Source: Squalus acanthias
Taxonomy: Eukaryota
DNA: 64,000 nt
Direction of reading: 5' to 3'
NCBI GenBank assembly: GCA_030390025.1
Contig: CM059441.1
Span: 39,122,001 to 39,186,000 of the forward strand
Each line of letters opens with the position of its first letter. Within the stretch, counting starts at the first letter, position 1. The notes under the pieces are model-generated. The model was not told the DNA's origin. It did not search any database and saw nothing but the letters and a program-made list of their open reading frames with translations. Positions 920 to 19,530 of the stretch are shown in pieces. The translations under genes were made by a program, and so were the position numbers.

Positions 920-3885
920 AATGTTTGAGCAAAGGCTGGGCATCTTTGAAGTCTTGTATGGTCTACAACCTCTATAAAATTGGAGGGAAAGCAATCACCA
1001 GGGCTTCAATTGGTTGGCTGAAGAACAGCCGTGACAGAGATCTGCAAACAGGTGCAATGATTTTTTGGCCACAGGTAGTGAGTTGACATGGTAAGACGTG
1101 TGTGGGGCTGGATGAGCAGAGAGGTGAAGAGATATTGGGAGAAAAGAAAGACTGGCTTTCGAAAAATCAAAACAGCACAAGAAATGTTGCCATGTAGCTC
1201 TGACGACTGATTGTTTGTAAAATCTTCAAAAAACAAACAGAAGTGTCAACTTTCAACAGAAGGTTACTTGTGGAAATCAGATGGATTAACAGGCTGTGCC
1301 ATTGAGTTAAAGGAGGCAGTTTTGGACTTCCTATTCCCCAAGTGAATTTATGATCTTGCCTGAGTCTTTGGGATCTGATTGGTGCTTTCTCACAAAGACA
1401 TGAAGGCAAGAAACCTCATTTACTCACCGAACAACTGGTCACAGATCGCCACTGGGAAAAGCTTAGAACTGGTGCTTGGCCACACTGATAGCCAGCGATC
1501 AGGGCAGAAAGTGAAAAAAGGGGAAAATATAAATGTAAAAAATATTTATAAGGTTATAGAGAATTCAGACATGCAAGCAGTCATTTATTTATTTAGATGT
1601 ATTCACTCCTTAAGTTGCCTGCCACTCTGAATCATACTACTGCCATATAAAAGACTACCTGAGTTATTGTCTTCATTTTGACCACCAATGACATTACCGA
1701 AGTGACCAACAGAATGGACAAGAACCATGTGCCTTTCTCTTCTCTCCCCAAAGACTTTGCTTCCAGGGTGTGCTCCATCAAACAGATGAGTTGAAGAAAC
1801 TCAAGGCAAGCGTGTTTGAATGACAGGCAGCCCCGAAACTCAAACGCATGACCTGGTTGAGAGTAGGATGTGGAACTGCTCAAGGTGATCTGAATGCCTC
1901 AGCAAGGTAAGCAACTTATTTAGAAATATATTTAAAATTTTTGATTTACACCAGATTAAGTTTATCAGTCATTCATTTTTAAAAAAAAACTAAATTCTAT
2001 TCAGACACACCTTTACAATCAATTGAATATTACATAATTTGTTGGTGCAGAAATGTAATCATAACTTGCAAGATATTTATTGCACCATGTACAGTTACAA
2101 TAGTGCCACCTGAAATCTACGCAAGACTAGGAACTATAGAGGGAGCAGTGTGAATGTGGATTTAGCAGTTAGGGTTCAACAGACAGCATTCTACTAAAAC
2201 ATCATGATCAAGTCAGCTGCTAATCTGCACAGGCCCACTGAAATAAAATAATGGGTGAGAGTAAGTAAATATTTTAAATGGACATTCATAATGTTTTCCA
2301 GTCAGTCTGTCTCAATACTTGGAAAGACTCATTTCTAGCCTTGCTGAAGTGGAGAAATGCATCCAATTTCTCTCTTCTCCCTTCTATTATGCCAAGGTAG
2401 AGTGGTGATGGACTGCAGTGATGCACCAGTGAGCGCCATCGTGCATGTCATGAGATGGGCGCACTCCCATGACTAATCACACAAACTTAATGGCTCATCT
2501 GTGGAGATGTTGCCCCACAGAGGAGGGGTCGTTTAGGGGGGCGGGTGCAAAGAGGGGGGAGATACAATTGGCAGCCAAATCACAATAGCTTTGCTGTTTC
2601 ACATCTCATCATGGTCTGAGCCAGAGGAGTGCTGGAAGCTGATTGCCTGGCTACCTTCTCAGCTGCAAAAATGGGAGAAGGAGAAGACAGACTGAAAGAC
2701 AGAAGAAAACTAAACATGGGACACAACACTTCCTTGTAAAAGGACACAAATTAGACAGTCCCTAATTTCAACTGTGCCATGCAGGATTTCCCCCTAAAAT
2801 GCAGCGTGTTTCAATGTTAACAACATAAACAGTTTATATTTCATAATCCATTTTGCACAATTATTAATAATTAAAGGTCAGTTGCATGTTAAAATGAACA
2901 TTCCTAACAGAAAGCATCCATGGTCAGAAACAATCATAAAAGGAATGCATTTTGTAAATTCTTTCTACATAATATACTTCATACAACTGCAAATAGGATT
3001 CCAATAGATTTTTTGTTATCAACTAGATATAGACAGGAAGAAAGGCTTTTTTTGATGTCAGAAGAAAATAAACTGCATTATTTCAAATTCCTTGTTGTGC
3101 TGTTTTAGAGCATTGCAGTGAAGCCATTAATAAGTATATTGTTTGCAGAGTTCAATCTTACTATGGACACCAGATTACTGGCTTTTGTTCAATGAAATAT
3201 GGCTTCAGTTTTCTGTATCAAACAAATGCTTCTAACAGTACGTGAATCAGTATAAAGTATATACAGCAATTCATTTACAAAACTTGTTATTGTTTCTTGA
3301 ATGTCACAATAGCCACCCATATGTGCATAAAACTTTGTAAGAAATGTTTGGCCTGGATAATTTAAGAAAAATAACATGACAAATAAACTCAAAAATGATT
3401 AACTTAAGTTACCAAAAACAAATGGATGTATAAACTGTCCTAGTGTGGGGATAGCAGGTAGGTGATATTTCTGTAGAATGAGACTGGTCCTGCCATTGTG
3501 CTCAATGACTACTCTTGTGATGCAACCAAGAACTGGTAAAACTGTCTAATGAAGGAAGCTTAGCTCAAAGGACAGTCACTGCTTGGATTCTAATTCCAAC
3601 TCTGGTTGGTGATCAACTGTTTTTTTTTTAAATCAGAGCTAGCAATCTGCATATAACTACTGTCCCTTTACTGGTTACTAGTTGTGGTCACACTTTAACA
3701 GTGACGAACTAAATTTTAGTTTTTACACTATTTGAACAATGTGATAAAGATCACAAGGTTCCGTCCATTTTATTTTCAATAACTTACTGGTACAAGGCAA
3801 GTGAACCAAACCGCAAAACAGACATTTTACTGGTCATGGCTGTTAATGACTAACAGATTTATTTACTTCTAACCTTTCAGATATG

Positions 3886-4098
3886 ATGTGGAGATGCCGC
3901 TGTTGGACTGGGGTGGACAAATGTGAGAAGTCGCACAACACCAGCTTATAGTCCAACAGCTTTATTTGAAATCACAAGCTTTTGGAGCGCTGCTCCTTTG
4001 TCATCTCTTCACTTCACCTGACGAAGGAGCAGCGCTCCGAAAGCTTGTGATTACAAATAAAGCTGTTGGACTATAACCTGGTGTTGTGCGACTTCTCA
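3886..4098. mobile_element. Short Penelope-like insertion with inverted arms and hammerhead motif
   Basis: Direct repeat CTTTCAGATATG at 3874-3885 and 4099-4110, long internal inverted repeat, CTGACGA..GAAA core at 4018-4042. Confidence 0.8.
4014..4050 (+). ncRNA. Minimal type I hammerhead ribozyme motif
   Basis: tcac-CUGACGA-a-GGAGC(agc)GCUCC-GAAA-GC-UU-guga: 4-bp helix I, 5-bp helix II, palindromic AGCU helix III. Confidence 0.7.
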
Positions 4099-4344
4099 CT
4101 TTCAGATATGGTACACGTATATAAAGAATGTACACATGTACTGGCCCAGTACTTGTGCCTGCTCACCATAACTGGTAAGCACTGTTTGGAGAGAGGGGGC
4201 TGGAGGTGGAGGGAGTAAGAAAGGGGTATGATGTGAACAAGTGCTCACCTCAGATTTCCCCTACTAGGAGATACAAAAACCAGGAAAGCCAAGTTGTATC
4301 AGTTCTCTGTGAGTCCACATAATGAAGCAATTTAGGCAAGGGAA

Positions 4345-4511
4345 CCTGATGTCTGGCCTATGTGTGACTACAGTCCCTCACCAATGTAGTTGAGACTTAA
4401 CTGCCCTCTGAAGTGGCCTAGCAAGCCACTCAATTGTAACAGGGCATCTAGTGATGGGCAATAAATATGGCCTTCCCAGATATGCAAATATCCCAAAAAT
4501 TAATTTAAAAA
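4345..4511 (+). mobile_element. HE1-like SINE 3' fragment
   Basis: Tail GGGCATCTAGTGATGGGCAATAAATATGGCCTTCCCAG is similar to the LINE 3' end at 42597-42635. Name from recall of the elasmobranch HE1/HER1 pair. Confidence 0.6.
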
Positions 4512-5466
4512 TAGGCTCATATCCTAGTTACTGATTCATATTGAATCATCCATACCTAATGAACACCAATTCACACATGAAACACCTTTGTCCTCATCAC
4601 TTATGTTATACAGTGCACTTTGAGCTGGGACTTAAAGTTGTAGCAACAATAAAGTTTCATGGAAGAGAGAATAAACAAACTGCAAAAAGGCTGCTATCCC
4701 AAGTAGCACGAACAAGAAAGGCTGGCTTCCTAACCAAAGAATTAAAAGTATGATATCCCAGCTTGGGTGTCACTTAACTCCCATTTAAGATTAATTTTTC
4801 TACGCATGCAACTATTTTGATTCAGGATTATTACTAAGATTAGATCAGAATGAGACTTATAATTTTAATCTACAAAAATGTTATATAATCTTTCTAACAA
4901 AGTATTACCATCTTACATCAGTGTGGAGATGGCCTTTCTGGCTGTTGGACTATAACCAGTTTCGAAATTAACAGCAGTGATAATAAATGAATTGTTATTG
5001 CTTTGCTTACACTGAAGTTGGTAACTGCGTTAGAATGCCTAGTTTTAAAATCTTATTCCTATTGAGATCTGATAAATAAAAAGAGTGCATTTTCCACTAA
5101 CTCATGCTCGTGGATGAAAGCACACTGTGGAAACATTTTGCAAGATAGCATTTACTGTGAGCTAGTGGCATCCAGCAGAAACTGGACCATTTTCTTCTAT
5201 AGTAGCAGAAAAAAATCTATATCTGTTAAGATCAACCTTTCATTGGTCAATAACTGATCTTAACAGAACACTTTATTAGATATATTACACACGCACACAA
5301 ACGTCTGTTTCTTATTACCATGAATTGCAAAAGCAAAATTTTAGTTTTCCAATGCCAGAACAGCCTTACACACGATATAAGGTGTCGGATATTATTTCCA
5401 ACATGGTCTATAGTGAACGTTAAATATCCTTCTCCACCCTAGTTAATTTTACCATTATGTACCTTT

Positions 5467-6192
5467 CATAAGAATATAAGAATTAGGAGCAGGTGTAGGC
5501 CATACGGCCCCTCGGGCCAGCTCCGCCATTCAATAAGATTATGGCTGATCTTCGACCTCAATTCCACCTTCCTGCCGGATCCCCATATCCCTTAATTCCT
5601 CTGGAGTCTAAAAATCTATCGATCTCAGCCTTGAATATACTCAATGACTGAGCATCCCACCGCACTTTGGGGCAGAGAATTCCAAAGATTCACAACCATC
5701 TCAGTGAAGAAATTCCTCCTCATCTCAGTCTTAAATGGCTGGCCCCGTATCCTGAGACTATGCCCCCTAGTTCTAGTTTCTCCAGCCAGGGGAAACAATT
5801 CATCAGCATCTACCCTGTCAATCCCCCTCAGAATCTTACATGTTTCAATGAGATCACCTCTCATTCTTCTAAACTCCGGAGAGTATAGGCCCGATCTACT
5901 CAATCTTCCTCATATACAACCCTCTCGTCCCAGGGATCAATCTAGTGAACCTTTGTTTACCGCCTCTAAGGCAAGTATAGCCTTCCTTAAATAAGGAGAC
6001 CAAAACTGTGCACAGTACTCCAGGTGTGGTCTCACCAGAGCCCTGTACAAATGTAGCAAAACTTCCTTACTCTTGTACTCCAACCCTCTAGCAATAAAGG
6101 CCAACATGCCATTTGCGTTCCTAACTGCTTGCTGTACCTGCATGCTAACTCTGTATTTCTTGTACTAGGACACCCAAATCTCTCTGAACACC
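5467..6192 (-). mobile_element. CR1 LINE 3' fragment
   Basis: Broken ORFs with YRALVRPHLEYC and RRMRGDLIET. (TTCTTATG)-type tail at the 5467 end. Confidence 0.92.
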
Positions 6193-7295
6193 AAAATATC
6201 ATTAAATATGTAATGAAAAACATATAAAAAGGATTGTAATAGAGGAGCTAAAGATATAGACACACAAGAGTATCACACATCTTTAGCTATCACACAGTGT
6301 TACAATTACCTTTAAGCAGATTAGCTGAAAATACACTGCGTTTATTTACAAAATTTCCTATCCTCTCCACTGCTCAAGGCAGCCCCAAGTTTAATGATTA
6401 TATTAATGGAATCCAGACTGGGTTTTAAAAATGTTCTTTTGATGTTTCCTTTAGTGTAATTAGTTTTGAAGGTAATGTTTTTTAACCTTGAATTCTTTCT
6501 GTTGGGCTCCAATAAACTATTAGTCTCATCCGTTATTCCTGCTTATCGGATCTATACATATAAAGTATCTCATTAGGCAGAGCGTATTTGATACCAAATC
6601 CAATTTCACACAGAGCACTGGAATCATTCTCCAATTTCTTGAGGAAAGCAAAAAACAAATAGCAGCTCATACATTGTGCAGCTCCTAACCACAGTGAATG
6701 TGCAATTAGTCTTTTTGCAGCTGTAATAGATTGATTCTGTGCTCCTCTCTTTTACTCTCCCCCTCCCCAATATACATCCAATTATTTTTAATTACAACAA
6801 ACTGCTCATTACTTGCTCAAATCCAACAATAGCCTCACTCCACCCACTCAATGATCTTTTCCAGCAATATGTTGTATCCTGCAGCCTCAGTTTCTCTGGG
6901 TACAGCTTGTTCTGCTCCACCATTGGAGGTCAACTCACAGTGACGTCCCAAACCAGTTTTCTTTATATACAAAAAAACAGTCGAGCAGGGGATTGATTAC
7001 TACTGATGCATGAGATTGCAGAGACTTGGGTTTTTACATGGTTAAGTGGCTGAAGCCAATTCCTTTTACGAACTCTGACAAAATCAACTCAACTGGTTAA
7101 CCTGGCTCACACTATAAATGTACAAACTGATTATTGTAATCAGGGTAGTATTAAAATCAAATATTTAACAAATTATGATCTGTACAATACTTGGGAGATA
7201 TCCCCAATAGAAAAGCAAGGATTGAGGTCGACAATATGCATTTGATGCCTTTTCTAAAGTGGGACAAGGTTAAACTTCTGAAACACTTGAATCTA

Positions 7296-7506
7296 TGATG
7301 TGGAGATGCCGGCGTTGGACTGGGGTGGACAAAAATGAGAAGTCGCACAACACCAGGTTATAGTCCAACAGATTTATTTAATTTTACAAGCTTTCGGAAC
7401 AGTTCGCTCCTTCGTCAGGTAGCTAACTTAGCTGACGGAGGAGCGAACTGTTCCGAAAGCTTGTAAAATTAAATAAATCTGTTGGACTATAACCTGCTGT
7501 TGTGCG
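7296..7506. mobile_element. Short Penelope-like insertion with inverted arms (variant subfamily)
   Basis: TSD ACTTGAATCTA at 7285-7295 and 7507-7517. Hammerhead core on the minus strand at 7385-7421. Confidence 0.8.
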
Positions 7507-7599
7507 ACTTGAATCTAGTCAGACTTCAATATCGAATTTTCAGGAATCCAACAGAAGATTCAAGGAATCAAAGACGACAAAACACTGATGTGGCAATCG

Positions 7600-8825
7600 C
7601 ATCAACAGTTGACATTTACATCACTTCTCATGTAAAAGAACATCTCAATGTACTTTACAAGGCAGAGAGGTGGACAATGAGCAGGAATTGGTGGGTGAGG
7701 AGGGAACCAAGGGTACTGTCACAGAGCTGATTTTTTTTAAAGTGGCATCTGAAGGCAGGGAGAGTTAGAATTCCAGAGACCAGAGGCGCAATGACTGAAA
7801 AATCGATCTCTGATGGTAGAGCAGAATGAGAAGTAACGCGGAGTCAAAGAAACTGAAGCCACAGGATTTAAGTTATGGCTGGAGAAGATCACTCAAATAG
7901 GGTTCAGTGAAGCTGTCAAACGATTAAAAAATTAGAACGAGGATCTAGAAAATAATTTGTTGTGGTATAAGGAGCCTGGCAAGATGGATTTATGGAACTT
8001 TGTGCTGGAAAGGACAGGGACCGTCGAGTTCTGGATTAGCTGAAGTTTTTCGGGGCAAGGAAGATGTGGATAAGCCAGTGAAGACAACATTTAAGAAATC
8101 AATCTCGGTGATGAAGGGGTGTATTATGCTGACAGCTCAGGGTTGGACACCAGATTCAGCTTCAACAGGTAGCTATGAAGTCATTTTCTGGCAGATGCCA
8201 AAATGGATTGCTATATTCTGCTGATGTTCAGCAGAGGAAAATTTCAGACGATCCAAGTGTTAGAGGTGGCAAAGGCAGAAATCCTCAATGTATTTAAAAA
8301 GTACTTGGATATGCACTTGAGCACTTGAAGTGTCGTACCAGGCTACGGACCAAGAGCTGGAAAATGGAATTAGGCTGGATAGCTCTTTTTCGGCCAGCAT
8401 AGACACGATGGGCTGAATGGCCCCCTTCTGTGCTGTAAGTTTCTATGATTCTATAAGTGTTGATGTTGGGTAGGCAATCAAAAAGGACAGCAATGGTCTT
8501 TGAGTCAATTGTGGTAGCAGAATGGTAGAGTTGAGTGTTGTCAAATGGTTGTAGATTTATATTGCTAAGGAGTACAGTGTAAATGATCAATAGGAGGGGA
8601 CCATTTACCGTACAGGCTCAGGAAGAAAAATCATTTAAGTAGGTTGCAATGGGATCATATAGGATGCTATGAAAGAAAAGCAGGTGGAAGAGAATGGAGC
8701 AGTCGAAAATTGCAGAGCGATCAATGAGGGGCAGTGAACCACAGTCACAGAGGATGTTGTTGGCGATTTTGACTAGGGTGGGTTTAGTGCTGCAGGCAGG
8801 TTGGAAATCGGTTTGGAGGGTCTTC
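7600..8825 (-). mobile_element. Old, degraded L2-like LINE remnants with a nested plus-strand CR1 tail (about 8292-8455)
   Basis: Residual similarity to the L2-like copy at 37890-39055. The nested tail ends TTTCTATGATTCTATA. Boundaries approximate. Confidence 0.55.
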
Positions 8826-9049
8826 CCAGCCCTCCCTCTGCTGCAAATGTTATCAACATGCTTTGTAAAATAGCAAAATACTGTATTACTAAATGTGTTA
8901 GTGGCATCTACAGACAGAACATCAATACTGGAAACTAGTTTCCTCATTAGCTATCCATGGATAAGACAACTTGCACACATTGCTGTATCTAACACTGGCC
9001 AATAGGAAACTTCCAGCCAGATTGTCTGTGGACTGCTTAATATTTATAG

Positions 9050-9268
9050 TGGCCATGATGTGGAGATCCGGTGTTGGACTGGGGTGGACAAAAATGAGAA
9101 GTCGCACAACACCAGGTTATAGTCCAACAGTTTTATTTGAAATCACGAGCTTTCGGAGTGTTGCTCCTTCGTCAGGTAAAGTGACCTGACGAAGGAGCAG
9201 CGCTCCGAAAGCTCGTGATTTCAAATAAAACTGTTGGACTATAACTTGGTGTTGTGCGACTTCTCATT
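9050..9268. mobile_element. Short Penelope-like insertion with inverted arms and two hammerhead motifs
   Basis: TSD TTAATATTTATAG at 9037-9049 and 9269-9281. Arms of about 87 bp; cores at 9143-9179 (-) and 9184-9218 (+). Confidence 0.82.
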
Positions 9269-9541
9269 TTAATATTTATAGAAAAGCCATTTCTCATGGG
9301 GATTATCACGATAAAAGAACTAAACTAAAAGCTGGGCTCGTGGCAAATTGTAACTCTGTTATGAAGCTGATATCATAATAGTCTGCTTAATGTTGCCAAA
9401 TAATGCATCCATTTTAAAATCTGCTTGACCATAGGAAATGAATAGTTGATGCAAAGAATTTACAAAAAAATAATTGTTACAATGGCCAGAACTCCTGAAA
9501 TGCAAAATAATTTTGTGTTTCAATTTACCTAACAAATCATT

Positions 9542-18456: not shown

Positions 18457-18544
18457 CTTCACCCGACGAAGGAGTAGTAACTCCGAAAGCTTGTGATTTC
18501 AAATAAAACTGTTGGACTATAACCTGGTGTTGTGCGACCTCTCA
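18457..18544 (+). mobile_element. Solo arm of the Penelope-like hammerhead family
   Basis: tcac-CCGACGA-a-GGAGT(agta)ACTCC-GAAAGCTT-gtga, then the family tail CTGTTGGACTATAACCTGGTGTTGTGCGAC. Confidence 0.8.
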
Positions 18545-19530
18545 ATTCTGAGAGTAGCAGGAGGGGCCTAGAGCTGTTGATGACAAATCATGTTCATGTA
18601 CCTAGCCTTGGAAAACACTTAAGGAGGTGGCGGCCCCAATCAGAAGAGCAACTACCTCACGGTGAGTTTCTTAAAAAAATGACCTGTGACTTGTATAATA
18701 ATAGCTCTTTACATTTTAGATGGAATTTCTTTTTAACTGGGGGGCATGGCTATTGGAGAGCCTCATCTTGCAATATTCCTTTAGTCTCGTGCCCAAGTTG
18801 GCATTATGCTACATCATTTGGCTGTAGTCATGCAATCTTGAATAGGACACCTCATCTGATGGTTTTGAATGGGAAGTGGCAAAATATTAAAGCTTTCCAA
18901 AACTGCAATCTGAAGATGTCAAATTTATTAACAATTATATAAACAATAGTCATAACCTTCACCAAACTGTACCTAATTTGTCCAGGAATAGTGAGGAACC
19001 AAGGGGCTAATGAGAGTGAGGAACTTAAAGCAATTAATATCAGTAGAGAAAAAGTACTTGAGAAACTAATGGGCTAAAAGCCGACAAATCCCCTGGACCT
19101 GATGGCCTACATCCTAGGGTTCTAAAAGAGGTGGCTGCAGAGATAGTGGATGCATTGGTTGTGATCTTCCAAAATTCCTTAGATTCTTGAACGGTCTCAG
19201 CGGAATGGAAGGTAGCAAATGTAACTCCGCTATTCAAGAAAGGAGGGAGAGAGAAAACAGGGAACTGCAGGCCAGTTAGCCTGGCATCAGTCGTCAGGAA
19301 AATGCTGAATCCATTATTAAGGAAGTGGTAACAGGGCACTTAGAAAATCATAATATGATTAGGTAGAGTCAACATGGTTTTATGAAAGGGAAATCGTGTT
19401 TAACAAACTTAGAGTTTTTTTGAGGATGTAACTAGCATGGTAGATAGTGGATGTAGTATATTTGGATTTTCAAAAGGCATTCGATAAGGTACCACATAAA
19501 AGGTTGCTAAGCAAGATAAGGACTCATGGG

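Follow-up and report, generated by a model that had tools for sequence, protein, structure and literature searches.

The mirror-image insert of ~220 bases at positions 9050–9268 of the window (the whole 64,000-nucleotide stretch of Squalus acanthias contig CM059441.1 analysed here) consists of the terminal-repeat (pLTR) end of a Penelope-like element (PLE) in two head-to-head arms, only one of which bears a tail. What stands at this locus is an unremarkable dead stub from a new member of a PLE family; it does not form a working ribozyme pair and has no evident function. Inserts of this kind were probably built at the landing site, where both nicked strands would have primed reverse transcription of the start of the capped, uncleaved element RNA.

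The inverted arms of the focal insert (9091–9177 and 9184–9270) are 87 nt long, 97% complementary and 6 nt apart (Table 1). Arms of about 87 bp, a 13-bp target-site duplication (TSD) and the string CTGACGA-A-helix II-GAAA-GC-TC in each arm had been described in the initial annotation, and all three were recovered; its description as a palindrome holds for the arms but not for the insert as a whole, which carries the tail at 9050–9090 on one side only. The tail-bearing arm is 94.7% identical to the 3′ pLTR of an intact copy (L186) and terminates one base beyond the initiator A, and the final 2 nt of the tail-less arm are common with the TSD. On the − strand the hammerhead core lies at 9169–9175 and helix II at 9155–9167, with a C-A mismatch as its fifth pair, and the cut is predicted between 9147 and 9146. 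Both cores retain the catalytic bases, but helix I of the + arm comprises 2 bp followed by a G-G mismatch, so the statement that either strand holds an intact core is overstated. The AAC/AGC difference between the arms is a single transition that the locus search selected for, and is therefore not used as evidence for two templates. Read-through RNA of the insert is predicted to fold at −152.9 kcal/mol (z −24), a stability equalled by 0/200 shuffles. Because the two cores lie on opposite strands within one long predicted duplex, they do not form a ribozyme dimer: any one transcript contains one core, base-paired to its antisense copy, and the ribozyme in such a hairpin transcript is predicted to be sequestered, with its core paired.

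Two further copies with TSDs of their own had also been listed and are real; a fourth copy, a solo tail-less arm, had been overlooked. The cores are not intact in every arm. C3 and G8 are lost from the tail arm of the second copy, whose tail-less arm extends further 5′ than the tail arm, and the tail-less arm of the third carries A9>G. Helix II of the solo arm is closed by a U-A pair.

Table 1. Coordinates of the focal insert, its parts and the other copies of the family in the window
Feature	Position	Strand	Remarks
Left target-site duplication	9037..9049		13 bp, exact repeat of 9269-9281
Right target-site duplication	9269..9281		13 bp, exact repeat of 9037-9049
Tail-bearing (direct) arm	9050..9183	-	Initiator A 9182, hammerhead, AATAAA, tail, first 7 nt of PLE ORF
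Minimal type I hammerhead	9143..9180	-	Called from sequence and family covariation; cleavage predicted
AATAAA, putative poly(A) signal	9132..9137	-	In 57/57 long copies; function inferred
One-sided tail, closing in ORF start codon (9056-9054)	9050..9090	-	No counterpart in other arm
Tail-less (inverted) arm	9184..9270	+	Core 9186-9192, helix II intact, helix I only 2 bp
Second hairpin copy	3886..4102	-	12-bp TSD, 3874-3885 / 4099-4110
Third hairpin copy, another subfamily	7296..7510	-	11-bp TSD, 7285-7295 / 7507-7517
Solo tail-less arm, U4C core variant	18457..18550	+	Start adjoins initiator

The Penelope link proposed for the insert is supported by the tail, which in intact copies continues into an ORF for reverse transcriptase (RT) and GIY-YIG. 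Three of ten fetched loci (L186–L188) hold intact ORFs of 890–892 aa into which the tail sequence runs on; upstream, copies lead into the endonuclease (EN) domain and 3′ UTR, and downstream the ATG of the ORF closes the tail. L186 is laid out as an inverted copy, a partial tandem, the ORF and a pLTR, and partial tandem pLTRs, an inverted 5′-truncated copy, a one-sided tail and a TSD were found in L186, L187 and L192. The RT domain of the parent ORF matches RVT_1 (E=5.6e-8); a Pfam search made no GIY-YIG call on L186 or L032, the motif being read by eye in the parent ORF, and homologues carry PF01541. By these sequence features the parent qualifies as an EN+ PLE with a single ORF for RT and a putative C-terminal GIY-YIG domain. 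A C-x4-C-x2-C motif precedes EN in L186–L188, and a zinc-finger-like linker between RT and EN is described as common to Neptune and Nematis in the available text of PMC8557442; the cysteine linker suggests that the parent belongs to Neptune (or Nematis), a label that we treat as provisional. Its closest named protein homologues are shark proteins. Numerous full-length PLE homologues come from contigs of just ~2.8–3.3 kb, near unit length, which could be collapsed repeats or circles.

The 3.7-Gb genome that was searched contains 48,203 exact matches to a tail 20-mer and 39,196 to a core 13-mer (reversed control, 131). Short hairpins of the focal type number at least 10,445 and would come to ~19,000 when the 37/94 found in a sample is scaled to 48,203. 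A TATA-like box sits ~30 nt above a pyrimidine-A initiator in 52 of 57 long copies; the spacing between this initiator and the core below it is 7 nt in 43 copies and 13 nt in 14, and AATAAA stands immediately past the hammerhead in all 57.

A search of Rfam, which had been suggested as a check, returned no hammerhead at the gathering score in the whole window and none at E≤10 in 3700–9500, where its miRNA and sRNA matches were rejected as generic hairpin matches. The hammerhead call consequently depends on core conservation and covariation. Across the 57 long copies the core is near-invariant save for N7 (C, G, A or T), N17 (C or T) and the U4C variant, and helix III is palindromic. Twelve copies picked by hand, 11 of them distinct, have 98% of cells paired against 23–49% in slid controls, with C-G/U-A compensatory changes in helices I and II; kinship among the copies inflates the shuffle test. 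The hammerhead looks selected, and its earlier assignment to the minimal type I class is upheld, at the level of sequence, by the conserved core, the palindromic helix III and the covarying helices I and II. It shares with metazoan PLE hammerheads, as described in parts of PMC4209133, a short helix I, an extra base before helix II, G10.1-C11.1, a palindromic helix III and high variability. The same source places hammerhead pairs on opposite strands, 100–700 bp apart, in Schistosoma, whereas pairs here are often <30 nt apart and their cleavage is a prediction.

Copy anatomy was determined in a tail-anchored sample, the first 100 of the 48,203 matches, which covers the first 6.4 Mb of one contig and comprised 98 copies after de-duplication, 94 of them analysed. 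L144_1 (tandem neighbour), L126 (degenerate) and L083 (junction not resolvable) were left out; L127, first left out as a presumed duplicate, is a separate insertion and is included in the corrected counts. L142 was also left out of the long-arm identity and the stricter discordance counts, and breakpoints at two loci were placed by hand. The tail end is fixed. An inverted arm was found in 68 of the 94 copies, its end lying at −33 to −43 from the tail end in 64/68, and a TSD in 58 of these 68, measuring 12–14 bp in 51/58; the TSDs of inverted copies are 71% AT. Insert sizes form a continuous series from ~120 bp to kilobases or full length. The earlier proposal of repeated inverted insertions of an autonomous PLE is supported. 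Calling them abortive is apt in part, but many arms end at the predicted RNA start and not at random. Both arms are short in 37 of the 68 pairs, both long in 23 and mixed in 8 (32.6 mixed pairs expected), a bimodality that suggests two RNA pools.

The 5′ ends of the arms mark this start. Of 147 resolved ends, 30 map to the initiator A or no more than 3 nt from it; in the adjoining 27 nt upstream the rate is 6.7 times lower (p=1.6e-9), and the peak has a downstream shoulder. Only 3/147 lie within 2 nt of the predicted ribozyme cut site, and ribozyme cleavage was rejected as their origin. Where the base before the initiator A is templated by neither arm, it is G at 46 loci versus A at 2, and G at 5 versus T at 0 in a second set; the control one base downstream of the initiator-A position yielded 10 loci, and G/C fillers occur off the initiator as well. 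Twenty of the 46 G loci were read. They include four helix II types, with the G on an arm with the tail in 12 and on one without it in 8 (11 and 7 by script, two by eye), from which we conclude that the G loci formed independently. A cruder test of the pooled sample placed G before 19/28 initiator-ended arms and 26/50 other ends, a difference short of significance (p=0.23). For L1 an extra untemplated 5′ G is ascribed to cap copying in passages of PMC9341517, and the untemplated G before the initiator A is likely a cap signature too. We infer that the template for both arm types was a capped, sense, uncleaved RNA, its start being read from DNA alone. A tail intron, guessed from an acceptor-like stretch, was abandoned after four assembled contig sets, presumed to be RNA, gave no splice joint. 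Junction fillers at five loci (L019, L070, L073, L202, L217) repeat the initiator-proximal bases in tandem, which suggests either slippage of RT where the RNA ends or joining by polymerase theta.

In the scheme that we regard as probable, the endonuclease would make staggered nicks 12–13 bp apart, one target 3′ end would start at the tail end and the other ~38 nt upstream, both cDNAs would run ~90–135 nt to the cap, and end-joining would fuse the two cDNA ends, with the ribozymes as passengers in the product. The product has no TATA box, and it is predicted to be dead. Both arms need RNA, since a tail-bearing cDNA cannot fold back into a longer arm and a tail-less cDNA cannot supply the tail. 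In L1 twin priming, too, the second target strand primes on the RNA, and adjacent RNA segments become inverted; here, in contrast, both arms copy the same RNA segment. A further likeness to L1 is the extra 5′ G attributed to the cap (PMC9341517, in part). Twin priming with end-joining also fits what is described in passages of PMC11167929 for PAc (Poseidon of Anolis) in vitro, where both target strands are cut and extended, two internal RT start sites bound the tail and uncleaved RNA serves as template. The element here would resemble PAc in the two start sites bracketing the tail, the extension of both strands, a predicted dimer and the uncleaved template; the PAc ORF starts inside helix II, whereas here the ATG closes the tail, and in those passages the inverted arm is not derived from two-strand priming.

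We lean towards two different RNA molecules as the source of the two arms in a minority to a third of short hairpins. Ribozyme haplotypes differed between the arms in 18/48 short versus 0/24 long pairs before correction and in 17/47 versus 1/25 after it (p=0.003). When the unbiased sample alone was tested more strictly, 6/40 short and 4/27 long pairs were discordant (by length, 7 per 2,805 bp and 4 per 6,109 bp); because this result is weaker, and because conversion exists, the two-RNA step is less certain than the priming scheme. Reading of the 20 G loci by eye likewise showed no more than 3–5 discordant pairs. A strict crossover at the cut site was dropped as an explanation for discordant arms, being inseparable from helix II hypervariability.

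Two unique junctions are each common to separate insertions with their own TSDs on contig C1 (L261–L263 and L264–L265), the first at 3 loci within 0.55 Mb, two of which are a local duplication, and the second at 2 loci within 0.9 Mb. Sharing among neighbours only points to rare local gene conversion, or to local copying or hopping, and such conversion or whole-unit copying can make arms discordant, as at L127. It is also plausible, if less likely than two templates, that priming took place on one RNA and that gene conversion of short, break-prone hairpins afterwards produced the discordance, a change that replaces only the two-template step. The discordant arm of L127 lies beside a shared junction and discordance is concentrated near the hairpin tip (2/48 pairs differ downstream), as conversion would have it, yet recurrent-allele differences near junctions occur in none of 27 long pairs, discordant arms mostly retain the same rare subfamily marks, and the contig shows no clustering of identical spacers (4 pairs lie within 1 Mb against 2.5 under the null, p=0.22).

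Fold-back, in which a cDNA extends to the end of the RNA, folds over and then serves as its own template, has been proposed for inverted pLTRs with an antisense template in the available text of PMC3846280; the ends reported here point instead to a capped sense template, and we consider self-priming improbable. It would account for the correlation of arm lengths (rho 0.64 overall; 0.72 beyond the initiator, n=23), the frequent junction overlaps of 1–6 nt and the 98.8% identity of long arms (76 differences in 6,109 bp), for which homogenisation was rejected with 1 shared private variant against 15 one-arm variants. A hybrid version, with both strands primed and one cDNA folding back to fill most of the other arm, is conceivable for long pairs. 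The tail-less arm, however, extends further 5′ by >5 nt in 30/68 pairs and by >15 nt in 23/68 (the tail arm is the longer in 19/68), the extra G marks the sense RNA start on either arm type, and discordant sites adjoin the junction, a place at which fold-back would leave the two arms identical.

The initial annotation had also offered a non-autonomous, retrozyme-like family mobilised as a unit, and had proposed comparing inversion junctions. These proved variable and not fixed: 35 distinct spacers were present among 50 listed pairs. Fifteen loci have the focal junction: the initiator arm carries the tail in 10 of them, the opposite arm in 3 and neither arm in 2, and their subfamily marks differ. 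Given the varied spacers, and a junction whose tail can be on either arm, the palindromes are not a retrozyme mobilised as a unit, rare local exceptions aside. They resemble the non-LTR retrozymes of PMC7229834 and bioRxiv 10.64898/2026.07.22.740005, as far as the available passages go, in being non-coding, derived from a PLE pLTR and equipped with a type I hammerhead; those, however, are head-to-tail tandems with same-strand ribozymes, whereas the inserts here are single and head-to-head with cores on opposite strands, and no tandem array of the short unit was seen among the fetched copies, where one two-copy head-to-tail case occurs (L144). That the short palindromes are a retrozyme-like or MITE-like family of whole-unit copies of master hairpins is very improbable and already largely refuted: at least 10,445 similar short hairpins, spacers that recur (8 and 5 among the 50 listed pairs) and the two junctions common to separate insertions would fit, but against them stand the many distinct spacers, recurring junctions that, where examined, span subfamilies with the tail on either arm, unique junctions shared by only 3 and 2 copies, all local, the continuous size series to full length, and a short unit without a promoter whose ribozyme is predicted to be sequestered.

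A wider and rather doubtful extension of twin priming casts PLEs as a retrovirus-style R-region machine with two RNA forms, in which the ribozyme would switch between dead stubs and productive transposition. The mRNA would begin at the pLTR initiator and finish at the AATAAA in the 3′ pLTR, leaving RT start sites only near its 5′ end, and a dimeric enzyme, often with two hammerhead-paired RNAs, would prime both target strands. Capped uncleaved RNA would yield strong-stop-like palindromes, and hammerhead-cut, circularised RNA long and more-than-unit copies. The bimodal pairs (37/23/8), the invariable AATAAA, the cap-like G and the mixed-haplotype arms fit this reading, and its hypothetical circle model for long copies extends a proposal found in parts of PMC4209133.

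The head-to-head pLTR layout itself is already known from the available text of PMC3846280, PMC8557442 and PMC8969392. In EN+ PLEs (Pen2a_Av, PMC3846280; PMC8557442, both in part) the inverted pLTR is shorter than the direct one and a one-sided tail of 30–40 nt is present. Insertions of the Pen2a_Av type likewise have a TSD around the head-to-head unit and a TATA box and TCACT initiator in the pLTR; as far as those accounts extend, the family here differs in that the pLTR-only form is a major one (at least 10,445 copies) and in its TSDs of 12–14 bp versus 8–10 bp there. A search of openly available papers listed none on twin priming, cap-G, bimodality or two-template arms in PLEs, and the cap-G, the short/long bimodality and the mixed-haplotype arms are additions to the known layout. 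How PLEs make inverted pLTRs, which RNA strand is copied and what the hammerhead does are described as open questions in parts of PMC3846280, PMC8557442 and PMC11167929. The tens of thousands of young copies that this genome contains make up a footprint library for PLE insertion, which predicts a start at a named base, cap copying on both arms, no use of 5′ ends cut by the ribozyme and, possibly, a pair of RNAs behind each insertion; the intact 890–892-aa copies are a source of enzyme. The family may also contribute ~90-bp dsRNA hairpins to read-through transcripts on a large scale.

Other elements were encountered around the copies. Of 98 sampled 3′ flanks, 26 map to a CR1-like RT ORF (e.g. 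L082, L084, L092, L100, L135, L067, L069, L072 and L090), a count for which the background estimate is unreliable; 9 of these sites share a 50-nt stretch, 4 are no more than 3 nt away from another, and a target hot spot is possible. One PLE copy encloses a 678-aa CR1-like ORF (L035:2821-4854), and the same GC-rich element occurs at different positions in or beside the pLTR in L034 (~650, minus strand), L159 and L270. Integrase-like frames of an LTR-type element lie directly past the PLE tail at L032:8565-9682 (minus strand).
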